Positions 44,917-59,920 are shown, counted from the first letter of the stretch. The stretch: 64,000 nt of DNA from an uncultured Bacilli bacterium (GCA_934131695.1 CAKOZV010000001.1:74060-138059), one strand, 5' to 3'. The notes: a model not told the origin generated them from the sequence alone. A program made the numbers and translations.

Positions 44917-45222
44917 ATGGATGAGCGTGTAAATGGTGGAGTGGTTGTAGATGCTGGACATGGAGGTAGCGATCCTGGAGCTATTAGTGGTAATTTAAGA
45001 GAAAAGGACTTTACCTTGGAAGCGGCTCTATATATGTATGATAGATTTAAACAGTTAGGTGTTCCTGTTGTTATTACAAGAGATTTTGATGAGGATTTAA
45101 GTAGGGCAGATAGACTTAAAAGAGCTAATGAAGCATTTAATGGTGATCCTAACACTATATTAATATCTAATCACATAAATGCAGGGGGAGGAGATAGCCG
45201 TTATGTAACAAAGTATGTATAA
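44917..45222 (+). pseudogene. N-acetylmuramoyl-L-alanine amidase (Amidase_3), 5' fragment truncated by island insertion
   Basis: VVVDAGHGGSDPGA...EKDFTLEAALY...ISNHINAGGG is the first half of the Amidase_3 domain. After about 45194 the frame runs into island DNA (DSRYVTKYV*). Confidence 0.8.
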
Positions 45223-45397
45223 CGATTAAAGCCAAATATAGAAATAAATGAATTATAAATCATAAAAAATAATTAATTAATAAATTATTGTAATAGTATT
45301 TAAGTTTCAAATATAATTTTTAAAATTATTACGAATAAAAAGTCATATTTATTACCCAAAAACTTCGTGTTATAATGCTTTTAGAGGTGATTTATGT

Positions 45398-46432
45398 ATG
45401 TTAACATTAGAAGAAAACAAAATTATTGATCAGTATGTTAATGAAAAATATTATGATAAAAGTAAGTTGATAAAATATTTGAATATGCATGAGATTGTTG
45501 GCAATGAAATATTTTCATATTGTGATAAAAAGATATATGGTTCTCCAACTTATTCCAATTGGCTTGATAGTGAAGCAGGATATAAGCCAGTTAGTAAAGA
45601 TATTTTTATTAAGCGAATACCTTTTTATTTTTATGTTGTTGATAGGGATGATATTAATCTTCAAAATTTTGGTTGCTTAAGTTATCTTTATACAAAAGAT
45701 AATACTAATTTAGAAGAAATTTTTAATGCTCTTGAATATATGTTTTATTCATTAAATATACCATTATATACAATATTTAATTATCATATTATTCAATCTG
45801 GAGTTGTGAGTAGTGATATTTTTTTGGAATGGAATCATTATCTTCATTTATGCGAGGAACTAGGGGAGAAAGATTATTGTCCTGAACATTTTATTAGTTC
45901 TTATAATTATTTACTAGAAAAAAGTAATCTAAATCCAATAATATATGAGATTGATGAGTATTTTAATTTTGAACCATTTTTTCGAGAAGGAACAAAATTA
46001 GTATTTGAAGGAGTTTTTCCAGTTGATGAAAATAATAATCCTATCATGAAATGGATTGGACTAAAGATTACAAATGTAGAGAATATAAAATGTAATTGTG
46101 AGAAATCAAAAAGTGGAAGGCTTGAAATTGTTATCACGCCTAAAACAGTAATACATGCTTTAAATTATTATAATTATCAAGATGAAGAAGGAGATTATTG
46201 GTATCAAATTTATGCAGGACCTCAAAATATGTACTTTGATTATGAAATTTTAAAAGAAAAAAGAAAAAAATTAGGTTTTACTCAAAAACAGGTTTCTGAT
46301 GCAGTTGGTACAAGTGTTAGAACTTATCAAAAATGGGAAGTTGGCGACACAATACCAGATGGTTATTTTCTTATTAGATTATTAAATTGGTTAGACATTC
46401 CTGATATTCAAAATGTTGTAAAGTATTTATAA
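45398..46432 (+). CDS. Protein with unknown ~290-aa N-terminal region and C-terminal XRE-type HTH
   Basis: The C-terminus LKEKRKKLGFTQKQVSDAVGTSVRTYQKWEVGDTIP is a classic Cro/C1 HTH. Confidence 0.65.
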   Translation: MLTLEENKIIDQYVNEKYYDKSKLIKYLNMHEIVGNEIFSYCDKKIYGSPTYSNWLDSEAGYKPVSKDIFIKRIPFYFYVVDRDDINLQNFGCLSYLYTKDNTNLEEIFNALEYMFYSLNIPLYTIFNYHIIQSGVVSSDIFLEWNHYLHLCEELGEKDYCPEHFISSYNYLLEKSNLNPIIYEIDEYFNFEPFFREGTKLVFEGVFPVDENNNPIMKWIGLKITNVENIKCNCEKSKSGRLEIVITPKTVIHALNYYNYQDEEGDYWYQIYAGPQNMYFDYEILKEKRKKLGFTQKQVSDAVGTSVRTYQKWEVGDTIPDGYFLIRLLNWLDIPDIQNVVKYL

Positions 46433-46439
46433 AGTAAAG

Positions 46440-46477
46440 CATTATTATCCTAAATTTTATTAGATAATAATGTTTTT
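46440..46477 (+). terminator. Rho-independent terminator
   Basis: CATTATTATC (46440-46449) / GATAATAATG (46463-46472), then T5. Confidence 0.65.
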
Positions 46478-46586
46478 ATTTTGTCCTAGTTAGCATTGAA
46501 AACTTACTCCCGTCAAGTTTTCTATTGTGAAAAAATTCCCAAACCCTTTAAAAAAATATTTTTTTTACTAAATTAATAAATTTACA

Positions 46587-46632
46587 TTTACTCTTGTTCC
46601 ACAAAATGCTATAATGTAGGTACGAGAGTAAA
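46587..46632 (+). promoter_or_regulatory. Inverted repeat bracketing the -10 box upstream of abiEi (candidate autoregulatory operator)
   Basis: TTTACTCTTG (46587-46596) and CGAGAGTAAA (46623-46632) are 9/10 complementary. TGcTATAAT at 46607-46615 lies between them. Confidence 0.45.
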
Positions 46633-46643
46633 GTGGTGAAAAT

Positions 46644-57774: not shown

Positions 57775-57837
57775 AACTTTTCTCCAAGTTGGAGAGAAGT
57801 ATTACATAAAATGATAAATTACTTATACAAAAAAGCA

Positions 57838-58748
57838 TTATTTTGATTTAATGCTATCATAAATAAAAGGTATTAAAATTACTGTTGAGATGAAATTATA
57901 TATTTGAGAGATATTATTTGAAAACAAGTGACTGTCCGTTATAGTAATTATTATTGAAATATTAGTTGCTTTTTTAACTATTATGTTTTTATTATTTATA
58001 TTCTTGGCTGTAAATTCTAGTAATTTTGTAAGTTTAGACTTGATGATTTTAATAATTTTAAGAAAGATTATACAAATCGTATTAATTACTAGAGTAAATG
58101 GACATAATATAAAGAAAATTATGTTATCTAGGATTTTTGTTAATTGATTTTTATATTTTCTAAATATTGGAAAATCATATGAAATTAATGTGAAATATTG
58201 ATTTTCTTTAACATGTAGTTTAGAATTTTTCTTTAATTTATATGTTATATTTGAGAGTAAAATAAAGAAGTTAATAGTAAATAAAAAAGTAAATAAAACT
58301 ATTTTTAAGATTAAATATATTATTAATAAAATTTCTTTTATAGTATGTTCAATAGTTGCTAATGATGTAAAATATAAAGGTGTCACATATGCAGAGAGAA
58401 AAACTATGAAAAAAAGTGTTGCACTAATATATGTATAATTACCATCTATAGGATTAGTATTTTTGTTTTTGTAAGTATCAATTAACGATTTTACTAATGC
58501 AATAGATGGAGCAATGATTAGAATTATAGATAAAATAACTTCTTTTGCTACACAAACTGCAATTATAGTAAGATATAAAACGGTTAGAAAAATCGAAGTA
58601 ATTTTATATTTAGTAATTGTATCTGATTTTGTAGCTTGTTTAAAATCCTTTTTTACTTCATTTTTTTCATTTTCTATATGTAGTTAATAGCAGCAATTGC
58701 AATAATTAGATATTCAAATATATGATTGTATAAGATAAAATGTAACAT
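57838..58748 (-). pseudogene. Multi-pass membrane protein gene, probably frameshifted near its 5' end
   Basis: An RBS (GGAGG) plus ATG at 58748 opens a 24-codon ORF ending at TAG 58674-58676. A second frame is open from about 58680 to 57838 with no canonical start until the GTG at 58386. Confidence 0.5.
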
Positions 58749-58838
58749 AATAAAACCTCCATAATTTAGTTATTTATTTTATCATTTTTGTTAAAGAATA
58801 ACAATAATCGTGGTAGAAGTGTATCAAGAGGTGATTTT

Positions 58839-59747
58839 ATGGCAGTACCAGAGTTCCAAAGTTTTATGTTACCAGTTTTGAATTTATTTTCTGATAATAA
58901 TATTCACACTACTAATGAATGCATGAAAGCGGCTATTGATTATTTTAAATTAGATGAAAATGATATAAAATTGACTGTTCCAAGTGGCAAACAAACATTA
59001 GTTGCTAATCGAGTATATTGGTCTCTGACTTATTTAAAGAAATCTTTATTATTAGATACAATAAGAAGAGGAGAATATATAATTACTGACAGAGGAAAAG
59101 CATTATTAAGAACAAATCCAAAAAAAGTGGATAAAAAACTATTATCACAGTACGAAGAGTATCGTTTATTTAGCAATCCGGTAAATGATACAATGTTTTC
59201 TAATATTAGTGATGAAAAAAATGATGAAATAACTCCAGAAGAGAATATTGATAAGATTTATAAAAAAATAAATGAACAATTAGCTGATGATTTGTTAGAA
59301 ATAATATTGGAAAAAGATCCATATTATTTTGAAAGGTTGGTAATGGATGTTTTAACTAAAATGGGTTATGTAGATTCAAATAATAATTCCAATATTGTAA
59401 CAAAAAAATCAGGTGATGAAGGAATTGATGGAATTATAAATCAAGATAAGTTAGGTCTAGATAAAATATATATTCAAGCTAAAAGATGGAATGAAAATGT
59501 AAGTAGACCAGAATTACAAAAATTTGTTGGAGCGTTATCAGCAAAAAAATCTAATAAAGGAATATTTATAACAACATCTGATTTTACTAAAGAAGCAAAA
59601 GAATATGCAAATAATTTATCTCATACTATAATTTTAATTAATGGAAAAGATTTAACAAAATTAATGATTGAGTACAATGTTGGTGTTCAAATTAATTATT
59701 CTTATGATATCAAAAAAATTGATAATGATTATTTTGAAATGTTGTAG
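58839..59747 (+). CDS. mrr: Mrr-family restriction endonuclease (Mrr_N winged helix + Mrr catalytic domain)
   Basis: MAVPEFQSFMLPVL N-terminus. Catalytic region GDEGIDGIINQDKLGLDKIYIQAKRW. AGAGGTGA RBS before the ATG at 58839. Confidence 0.8.
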   Translation: MAVPEFQSFMLPVLNLFSDNNIHTTNECMKAAIDYFKLDENDIKLTVPSGKQTLVANRVYWSLTYLKKSLLLDTIRRGEYIITDRGKALLRTNPKKVDKKLLSQYEEYRLFSNPVNDTMFSNISDEKNDEITPEENIDKIYKKINEQLADDLLEIILEKDPYYFERLVMDVLTKMGYVDSNNNSNIVTKKSGDEGIDGIINQDKLGLDKIYIQAKRWNENVSRPELQKFVGALSAKKSNKGIFITTSDFTKEAKEYANNLSHTIILINGKDLTKLMIEYNVGVQINYSYDIKKIDNDYFEML

Positions 59748-59757
59748 GTGATGTAAA

Positions 59758-59891
59758 ATGACTAAAGATGAATTTGAAAAATTAGCACTGAAATTAATAA
59801 TCCAATCAAATGTTAATTTTACTGATGAGCAAAAAGAAGTTTTGAAATATATAGTTGATGAACTATATAAAGAATATAAAAAAATAAAGTA
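59758..59891 (+). CDS. Small hypothetical protein (44 aa) next to the right island junction
   Basis: MTKDEFEKLALKLIIQSNVNFTDEQKEVLKYIVDELYKEYKKIK. Starts 10 nt after the mrr stop. Helical and charged. Confidence 0.4.
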
Positions 59892-59920
59892 GTTACACAT
59901 TGACTATCGCCAGGTGGCGA

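Follow-up and report, generated by a model that had tools for sequence, protein, structure and literature searches.

A large-serine-recombinase island with defence genes splits a cell-wall amidase gene in uncultured gut Bacilli and resembles sporulation gene-intervening elements

In this study we analysed a 64,000-nucleotide stretch of DNA from an uncultured Bacilli bacterium (CAKOZV010000001.1, 74060-138059; the whole stretch is called the window, and positions are counted from its first letter). In it one cell-wall amidase gene, encoding an Amidase_3 domain and five LysM repeats, lies in two halves on either side of an island that carries a large serine recombinase (LSR). The features that define this arrangement are the following:

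44917..45188, plus strand: 5' fragment of the amidase gene, codons 1 to ~91, through HINAGG
45160..45216, plus strand: attL (B arm - GG - P' arm), proposed crossover GG at 45187-45188, P' arm AGGAGATAGCCGTTATGTAAC
45189..59914, plus strand: integrated island, 14,726 bp, GC 24.1% against 27-29% in the flanks
56188..57774, plus strand: LSR, 528 amino acids (aa), TTG start, apparently intact, nucleophile Ser21 in YIRLSEADE
59885..59945, plus strand: attR (P arm - GG - B' arm), proposed crossover GG at 59913-59914, P arm GTTACACATTGACTATCGCCA
59915..61046, plus strand: 3' fragment of the amidase gene, the rest of Amidase_3 including the EYGF motif, plus five LysM repeats

The initial annotation of this DNA had described a split gene whose halves fuse in frame to 467 codons, and the open reading frames (ORFs), the join and the domain content are as it claimed. 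ORF 44917..45222 (101 aa) starts as an Amidase_3 domain (VVVDAGHGG...SNHINAGGG) and then reads into the island for nine unrelated codons up to its stop at 45222, and ORF 59931..61046 (371 aa) opens within the remainder of that domain and continues into the five LysM repeats. When 45194 is joined to 59921, a 1404-nt in-frame ORF for 467 aa results, in which Pfam recognises a single uninterrupted Amidase_3 domain (residues 9-183, profile positions 1-173 of 174, E=7e-29) followed by five LysM repeats. Uninterrupted 467-aa alleles, for which a BLAST search had been suggested, exist in the protein database: P0001 is 96% identical at 100% coverage, P0002 and P0003 are 86% identical, and the intact alleles occupy the same locus as the window gene, directly upstream of cca-dnaD-nth. 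Blastn of one intact locus (L001) against the window puts the break exactly at the predicted position, with 887-1215 matching 44866-45194 and 1208-2379 matching 59913-61084; the two matches overlap by 8 nt, which read GGAGGAGA at attL and GGTGGCGA at attR. Both halves have the same intact allele as their best match, with flanking synteny kept on both sides, and so belong to one gene and not to different paralogues. An assembly artefact is excluded because the identical arrangement recurs on contigs from several independent samples: the identical LSR stands in it on nine contigs (the two places shown come from different samples), and the Mrr and HTH_3 genes of the island are found on 15 and 16 contigs, respectively, from several further samples. 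As in the sporulation gene-intervening elements, a coding sequence is interrupted whose ORF is restored by precise removal of the insert; precise excision by the LSR would rebuild the 467-codon amidase gene. No near-identical empty site was found.

The split is widespread. A protein-guided search with one genome per species yielded 80 loci from uncultured gut Bacilli, in records named Clostridium sp. CAG:451, CAG:594, Mycoplasma sp. CAG:877 or as 'Bacilli/Tenericutes/Erysipelotrichaceae' metagenome-assembled genomes (MAGs), the MAGs being from humans, rabbits, ruminants and chickens. The amidase is intact in 37 of these loci, begins as a C-terminal fragment at residue ~87-91 in 32, and is present as an N-terminal fragment only in three. 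Most split loci with enough upstream sequence have an LSR just upstream of the 3' fragment, on the same strand and 47-82% identical to that of the window. A search with the N-terminal fragment returned 416 proteins, the best 120 of which are all 89-153 aa long; more than 400 gene calls of a 'truncated amidase' are halves of one gene. Seen from the recombinase, three LSR relatives with 70-80% identity lie in different genomic backgrounds, all of them in islands with the order HTH_36 gene, micro-ORF and LSR that end at an amidase C-fragment. Even LSRs that are just ~50% identical keep the same attB. In several species a paralogous Amidase_3-LysM gene (37-44% identity) lies on the opposite strand ~1 kb downstream, and genome RUG12933 has an intact amidase copy beside a split one (loci concerned: L021, L046-L048, L063, L077, L078; L040/L084).

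The comparison of ten attL/attR pairs (the window, CAG:451 as L091+L014, and L049, L052, L057, L061, L064, L067, L070 and L074) shifted the crossover from where it had been placed at first. The sole dinucleotide common to all ten pairs is the first GG of GGNGGNGA, and the attP dyad is centred on it in all island types. The crossover is therefore most likely this GG (45187-88 / 59913-14 in the window), 6 bp to the left of the GA that the initial annotation had proposed. The GA was rejected: L049 has AT there in its attL, the identity between attL and attR ends before the GA in L052, L057, L061, L067, L070 and L074, and the attR of L070 keeps the host alanine codon GCC where attL has GGT. The choice of GG over GA changes neither the length of the island nor the fused protein, and the geometry described earlier holds: the CATAAA/TTTATG flanks stand 13-14 nt from the GA, and the island ends form an inverted repeat that matches at 15/21 positions. 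The reconstructed attP, GTTACACATTGACTATCGCCA-GG-AGGAGATAGCCGTTATGTAAC, is accordingly an imperfect dyad with arms matching at 15/21, and the full reconstructed junctions are TTAATATCTAATCACATAAATGCAGGGGGTGGCGAAGGTGCGGAAGTGGTTTATGCCTTG for attB and TAAAGTAGTTACACATTGACTATCGCCAGGAGGAGATAGCCGTTATGTAACAAAGTAT for attP. In LSR systems attP is characteristically an imperfect dyad that shares with attB only a central crossover dinucleotide, and GG as the one dinucleotide common to the ten pairs agrees with this. An exact search for the GA-based reconstructed attB in species-representative genomes gave no matches, a result that is uninformative because wobble positions differ between alleles. Between the window and CAG:451, which share an att type, AGGAGA and TGGCGA are reciprocally exchanged to the right of the GG at attL and attR; gene conversion of the flank to the end of homology, or two attP/attB wobble variants, are possible reasons.

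The recombinase itself had been called an apparently intact 528-aa LSR, and its domains agree with this: a catalytic Resolvase domain (PF00239) with the nucleophilic serine in the YIRLS motif is followed by Recombinase (PF07508) and Zn_ribbon_recom (PF13408), all above their cut-offs, and the protein matches the PHROG 95 integrase with E=8e-97. Its best NCBIfam model is XisF (90.6 bits against a cut-off of 375), followed by CcrB (83.5 against 900); since these scores are far under the cut-offs, it is an equivalog of neither.

The remaining genes of the island are, all on the plus strand:

45398..46432: HTH_3 protein, 344 aa, domain C-terminal, repressor-like
46644..48076: AbiEi antitoxin (46644-47231) and AbiEii toxin (47225-48076)
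48159..48983: Fic/PDC-S72-like pseudogene with a nonsense single-nucleotide polymorphism (SNP), TAA at 48498-48500
48986..51418: type IIG restriction-methyltransferase with specificity domain, 810 aa
51426..55100: Upx-like anti-phage protein, 1224 aa, a partial match below the family cut-off
55443..55955: HTH_36 / phage replication-initiator-like pseudogene, in-frame TAA at 55569-55571
58788..59747: Mrr-type (type IV, methyl-directed) restriction endonuclease

The cargo is thus made up of defence genes, as the first reading had it: AbiE, the type IIG restriction-modification (R-M) enzyme, the Upx-like protein, Mrr and the Fic/PDC-S72 pseudogene. Pfam and PADLOC scans of all island ORFs of at least ~110 aa, with PHROGs added for four ORFs of the window island, found no phage structural, packaging or lysis genes, and the only functions seen were defence, regulator, replication-initiator-like and integrase functions; an SOS-type module was not seen in the island either. 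Three cargo genes had been taken as inactivated, two of which we could recover (Fic/PDC-S72 and HTH_36) while a third was not found. The stop codon of the Fic/PDC-S72 gene is TTA in the 99.9%-identical contigs L190/L191, and the HTH_36 product, ~175 aa long in sister islands, resembles the N-terminus of phage replication initiators. In this copy the recombination module (both att arms, the LSR ORF with its start, Shine-Dalgarno (SD) sequence and nucleophile motif, and the micro-ORF) looks intact and is near the family consensus. The HTH_36 and Fic genes have been lost to single nonsense mutations. Searches through the first and last genes revealed no circular or differently placed copies: Mrr, the last gene, is always followed by the amidase 3' fragment, and the first gene led to strains in which the amidase is split twice. 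Window 45189-59914 is a non-phage integrative LSR island, inserted at a GG inside amidase codons 90-91 (NAGG|GE).

Across the family the cargo is variable and includes type I R-M, Gabija-like OLD/UvrD, GmrSD, D12 methylase with HNH, and membrane proteins. When the island ORFs were clustered, the LSR was the most widely shared (24 loci), with the HTH_36 gene next (11 or more loci); the latter is lacking in L064 and L070, complete islands of 5.5 and 6.8 kb, respectively. The shared integration module consists of a micro-ORF and the LSR, usually preceded by the HTH_36 gene. Horizontal mobility is evident in L035, whose LSR is 82% identical to that of the window and whose host amidase is 54% identical. 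Among strains with ~95% flank identity, L001 and L012 have no island, L004 has one with a different LSR and att type, and in CAG:451 the att type is that of the window while the contents differ; L089 matches the window in all N-fragment residues (100%) yet has a third att type. The island is one of a large family, known from uncultured gut Bacilli that form spores, whose members all use one attB and carry interchangeable anti-phage cargo.

The same gene is also the target of a second LSR family, two different islands of which (L190 1-2565; L191 1-1589) lie at amidase codon 14 (DAG|HGG, window 44955-44965) in contigs L190 and L191. Over 4.4 kb including attL these contigs match the window at 99.9% identity. 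The insertion is at GGN|CATGG, where the window has no insert. The second LSR (535 aa, DUF4368) is 32% identical to the window LSR and belongs to its own module of HTH_36 gene, 47-aa ORF and LSR. Codon 14 is also occupied in L027, L028, L052 and probably L074, and therefore some genomes have an amidase that is split twice. Near-isogenic strains show very recent gain or loss of LSR islands in the same gene.

A layout like that of the gene-intervening elements of spore formers had been suggested from the window alone, and four observations support it: intact alleles occupy the same locus, related LSR islands split the same codon in 32 of the 80 loci, the host has sporulation genes, and the amidase has a conserved sigmaK-type promoter motif. 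A gene for an alpha/beta-type small acid-soluble spore protein (SASP) is part of the conserved downstream synteny and a Spore_Cse60 gene lies in the window region. The SASP gene (L004 ~18760-18840; also L006 and L008) has a canonical sigmaG-type promoter, GTATT-N17-CATTCTA, which indicates that the promoter code of the sporulation sigma factors is retained in this uncultured clade. By these gene-based, indirect signs the host is probably an endospore former. The elements that bear on expression of the amidase and the recombinase are:

44872..44901, plus strand: putative sigmaK-type amidase promoter, -35-like C at 44876, -10 CATATTTTA at 44893-44901
55993..56108, plus strand: CATAAATTT motif (55993-56001), SD, and 30-aa micro-ORF (56016-56108; MFNITETFKNDSPNFKELVSKYIKSVINNA), a candidate recombination directionality factor (RDF)
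56134..56142, plus strand: extended -10-like element TGTTATACT of sigmaA type between micro-ORF and LSR, read manually

The -10 element CATATTTTA of the amidase stands 4 nt before the SD GAGGTG. CATAnnnTA, with the three middle bases free, is found upstream of the amidase SD in 41 of 42 distinct orthologue sequences, which reach down to ~45% protein identity and whose upstream regions cannot otherwise be aligned. A C at -17 is present in 80% of them against a background of ~10%, giving the composite C-N16-CATAnnnTA. By itself the motif shows no enrichment in the window (87 occurrences, ~96 expected); the composite of CATAnnnT[AT], SD and start codon is seen six times in these 64 kb where 0.6 are expected, and the six include the amidase, its two neighbours (ORFs of 129 and 624 aa) and the micro-ORF before the LSR. 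The sigmaE and sigmaK promoters of C. difficile and B. subtilis have a CATA-type -10 in common and differ at the -35 (ATA vs AC), and sigmaK controls the mother-cell lysis amidases CwlC and CwlH (PMC3789822). The motif upstream of the present amidase, read from its sequence, matches the sigmaK consensus. The Amidase_3 domain starts at residue 9 with no N-terminal hydrophobic segment and no signal peptide, and the protein is not CwlD (69 bits vs a cut-off of 221, NCBIfam). The missing signal peptide and the conserved promoter of sigmaK type point to the amidase as a possible late mother-cell gene, for a lysin like CwlC.

Both neighbours on the upstream side carry CATAnnnTA with an SD: a 129-aa CLIPPER-like ORF (42422-42811, plus strand) and a 624-aa Asn/Ser/Thr-rich ORF with no Pfam match (42847-44721, minus strand). 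They may be late mother-cell genes for coat or surface proteins. The block 37442-44866 is missing from L001/L002 and present in L003. Two more composite matches lie at 29173-30036 (minus strand) and ~28170 (plus strand), one of them before a membrane-protein-like ORF of 265-287 aa; these genes may be in the same regulon. On the other side, between the amidase stop and cca, the window has a 999-bp insertion (61085-62083) that is absent from L001, L004, L012 and L014. It contains a Bro-N ORF (61205-61786, PHROG 15286) and a 77-aa ORF, and is bounded by direct repeats of ~36-40 bp (61045-61084 and 62083-62122) that duplicate the amidase terminator region. Bro-N genes are also found inside the sister islands L179 and L182.

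The micro-ORF links the island to this promoter pattern. In most of the island types checked, the minimal island L064 among them, the LSR start is preceded at a distance of 50-90 nt by an ORF of 30-41 aa that has the core F/I-K-D/E-L-I/V-x-K/N-Y/F-L/I; no such ORF was seen in L052/L067. CATAnnnT[TA] precedes its SD in 13 of 13 island types examined, within surrounding DNA that is not conserved. Between micro-ORF and LSR, TGnTAnnAT is kept in most island types by our own reading of the conserved sequence; a sigma-70 scan upstream of the LSR, in which a -35 was required, called no plus-strand site. In known sporulation elements small RDFs are encoded beside the integrase (PMC6957869, PMC5595907, PMC10747680). 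The RDF of C. difficile skin is under sporulation control (PMC5595907), and in SPbeta the integrase promoter is of sigmaA type and the RDF has a mother-cell promoter of the sigmaE/K type (PMC6957869). LSRs of the phage-integrase kind carry out attP x attB integration and require an RDF for attL x attR excision. Because the predicted layout of the island matches this SPbeta recombination unit, a sigmaA-driven integrase beside a small mother-cell-driven RDF, we propose by analogy that the micro-ORF might be the RDF. The HTH_36 protein was considered as well and is an unlikely RDF, as its resemblance is to phage replication initiators and complete minimal islands lack it; the absence of its gene from L064 and L070 means that it is not needed for site-specific recombination.

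Taken together, we think it rather probable, judging from gene and motif content, that the island represents a further sporulation gene-intervening element, new in kind of target, which moves horizontally, has defence genes as its cargo and interrupts the gene of a mother-cell amidase like CwlC, from which it would be excised during development. In such a scheme the LSR would be made constitutively from the sigmaA-type extended -10 promoter, and the 30-aa micro-ORF, as the RDF, would be switched on in the mother cell through its amidase-like CATAnnnT[TA]-SD architecture. LSR and RDF together would recombine attL with attR in the terminally differentiated mother cell, restoring the amidase there, and the forespore chromosome would keep the island. 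If so, the island would be without cost to the host at sporulation while supplying defence genes during growth. More tentatively, and with somewhat more doubt than trust on our side, it might be possible that in ~45% of the species of this clade spore release depends on the programmed, micro-ORF-triggered excision of one or two defence cassettes, with the lysin gene as their docking site.

Several observations weigh against a developmental element. Direct evidence of excision was none, with no attB or attP products in the collections searched: the exact fused 467-aa protein is absent from a collection of 15 billion proteins (exact look-up), the window-specific attP pattern had no matches in IMG/VR, and a generalised type-A attP core gave 78 matches in JGI and 5 in IMG/VR that are all due to chance, having the wrong arms, mostly the wrong GC content and no close relative of the window LSR. 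The -10-like motif lies just 3-6 nt from the SD, which leaves an unusually short leader of ~10 nt; its role could instead lie in translation or at the RNA level, or it could act in some islands as a weak sigmaA -10. The micro-ORFs have no PHROG or Pfam match, their constraint is moderate (the ratio of nonsynonymous to synonymous substitution rates, dN/dS, is 0.3-0.7 over ~30 codons), and with 30 aa the one in the window is smaller than both RDFs whose sizes, 53 and 72 aa, are quoted in work on the yin element (PMC10747680). The micro-ORF of the second LSR family has no CATA motif, no sigmaE/K-type promoter with a small ORF was found elsewhere in the island, and the window copy has a nonsense mutation in HTH_36, the only other conserved gene of the module. 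Finally, fast turnover of the islands could by itself account for the intact amidase halves and their low dN/dS.

The last point leads to the strongest alternative, a plain integrative defence island with no developmental role, for which the conserved NAGGGEGAE codons are merely a safe attB, the amidase is dispensable or redundant and excision occurs only sporadically, for horizontal transfer. The horizontal mobility and turnover of the islands fit such an element well, as do the absence of excision products from the searches, the nearby paralogous Amidase_3-LysM gene of some species, and the conservation of the target motif at the DNA level across hosts; the second LSR family sits in another catalytic motif of the same protein, as if conserved motifs were simply convenient. 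We nevertheless regard this alternative as unlikely, if still to be taken seriously. It leaves unexplained why two unrelated LSR families choose a gene with a sigmaK-type promoter, and why the rare -10/SD architecture stands before the LSR-adjacent micro-ORF in every island type examined. Nor would it lead one to expect the retention of a single attB by LSRs of ~50% identity or the state of the split genes. All 32 C-fragments at split loci are open from the junction for 236-376 codons, a length that follows the number of LysM repeats, and none of these alleles from species-level lineages has a frameshift or premature stop. For the C-fragment, nearly all pairs, whether split/split, split/intact or intact/intact, give a dN/dS of 0.05-0.18, a value of 0.57 coming from one near-identical split pair with very few substitutions, so that there is no consistent relaxation in split as against intact alleles. 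Open halves and low dN/dS fit either selection on a gene still in use or very recent insertions, and are not decisive alone.

A developmental element may also have lost its function, and the initial annotation had allowed for a decaying remnant. For the window copy this would mean that excision has been lost and that the amidase is permanently inactive in the lineage. Two nonsense-mutated island genes, one of them the conserved HTH_36 gene beside the recombination module, speak for it, and this part of the earlier description was apt; the island is fixed with identical lesions on many contigs, which come from different samples, and the search for a near-identical empty site was negative. The rest is less apt, given the recent gain or loss of islands in near-isogenic strains and the intact state of the LSR (with its start, SD and nucleophile motif), of the micro-ORF and of both att arms. 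Both amidase halves are likewise intact, with dN/dS ~0.16 against relatives, HTH_36 is dispensable for site-specific recombination by the evidence of L064 and L070, and the Fic lesion is a single recent SNP. We consider a locked-in remnant improbable. An assembly chimera or mis-join of halves from different paralogues or genomes, conceivable with metagenome-like data and paralogous amidases in some relatives, is already refuted by one intact allele that best matches both halves (96%, full length), by synteny kept on both sides, and by identical junctions on contigs from several independent samples.

We return to the reading of the island as a mobile sporulation element and compare it with known systems. 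The sporulation genes known to be interrupted are sigK, spsM, spoVFB, spoVR, gerE and yabG, with kamA as an SPbeta-like phage site (PMC5595907, PMC10747680, PMC6957869), and the elements of this group include skin, SPbeta, vfbin, vrin, gin and yin; in the literature library searched there was no paper that combines gene-intervening elements, sporulation and an amidase. Like skin in sigK (SpoIVCA/Skr in B. subtilis; CD1231/CD1234 in C. difficile), the present island would be an LSR element in a late mother-cell gene whose ORF is restored by excision, and in both the integrase gene adjoins a small gene, that of the cofactor in skin. Unlike skin it interrupts a cell-wall amidase and not a sigma factor, is not prophage-like, carries anti-phage cargo and belongs to a family whose members pass actively between species and comprise many att and LSR subtypes that use one attB; excision, known for skin, is inferred here. 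SPbeta in spsM (SprA/SprB) has the unit of attL, rdf, int and attR that is proposed here, and likewise an attP dyad with a central crossover (PMC5499854; PMC6957869); it is a functional temperate phage with additional stress-inducible excision, whereas the present island has no phage structural genes. The element gin in gerE of B. cereus ATCC10987 (GirC/GirX) is likewise a non-prophage element; it has a serine recombinase with an accessory factor and lies in a mother-cell gene (PMC5595907), and in being non-phage our element resembles it most. With its three recombinases gin has been described in a single strain, whereas the present family has one LSR, occurs in ~45% of the species of the clade and carries defence cargo. 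The yin element in yabG of C. botulinum is an LSR element in a sporulation gene, with a candidate RDF of 72 aa that has a putative SigK promoter, and with an attB that is conserved in other strains (PMC10747680); it differs in being prophage-like and unique to one isolate.

Outside sporulation, the staphylococcal cassette chromosome (SCC; CcrAB/CcrC) at rlmH resembles the family in that non-phage LSR cassettes with highly variable cargo use one conserved chromosomal attB, with several possible per gene. SCC integrates at the extreme 3' end of rlmH, which stays functional. Here, by contrast, the catalytic core of the amidase is split, the target is not rlmH and the LSR falls under the CcrB cut-off. 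The fdxN element of Anabaena heterocysts, with its recombinase XisF, belongs to the LSR family, and several elements interrupt related genes there, as do two at separate sites in the amidase. It is excised developmentally by its LSR in a terminally differentiated cell and has the accessory proteins XisH/XisI. Phylum, developmental programme and accessory proteins all differ from the present case. In having several cassettes in one gene, the family recalls SCC and also the nif elements of heterocysts. As for the target, a CwlC-type mother-cell lytic amidase would have an N-terminal Amidase_3 domain without a signal peptide, a peptidoglycan-binding module at the C-terminus and sigmaK-dependent expression. 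The present protein begins with Amidase_3, has no signal peptide and carries the sigmaK-type motif upstream; its C-terminal module, a SPOR repeat in B. subtilis CwlC, consists of five LysM repeats.

In conclusion, we characterized an LSR island whose structure is well supported and whose developmental regulation, as read from its sequence, is plausible. If this regulation is real, a cell-wall amidase would be added to the short list of sporulation genes rebuilt by DNA excision, and the phenomenon would reach beyond cultured strains of Bacillus and Clostridium into a gut clade that is widespread and uncultured. The 30-aa microprotein would be the smallest RDF known and under the control of a mother-cell sigma factor, and a gene expendable outside the mother cell would serve as a cost-free, clade-wide docking site for the exchange of anti-phage systems; with cargo riding in a gene needed only in a dying cell, the mobility of defence islands would meet developmental genome rearrangement. 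For genome engineering the family is a natural source of diverged LSRs whose attL/attR pairs on a single attB are defined, and of a candidate minimal RDF. With ~45% of species-level loci split, its prevalence is above anything described for the single-strain elements. From skin, SPbeta and gin it differs in its target, its host clade, this prevalence and its role as an exchangeable defence cassette.

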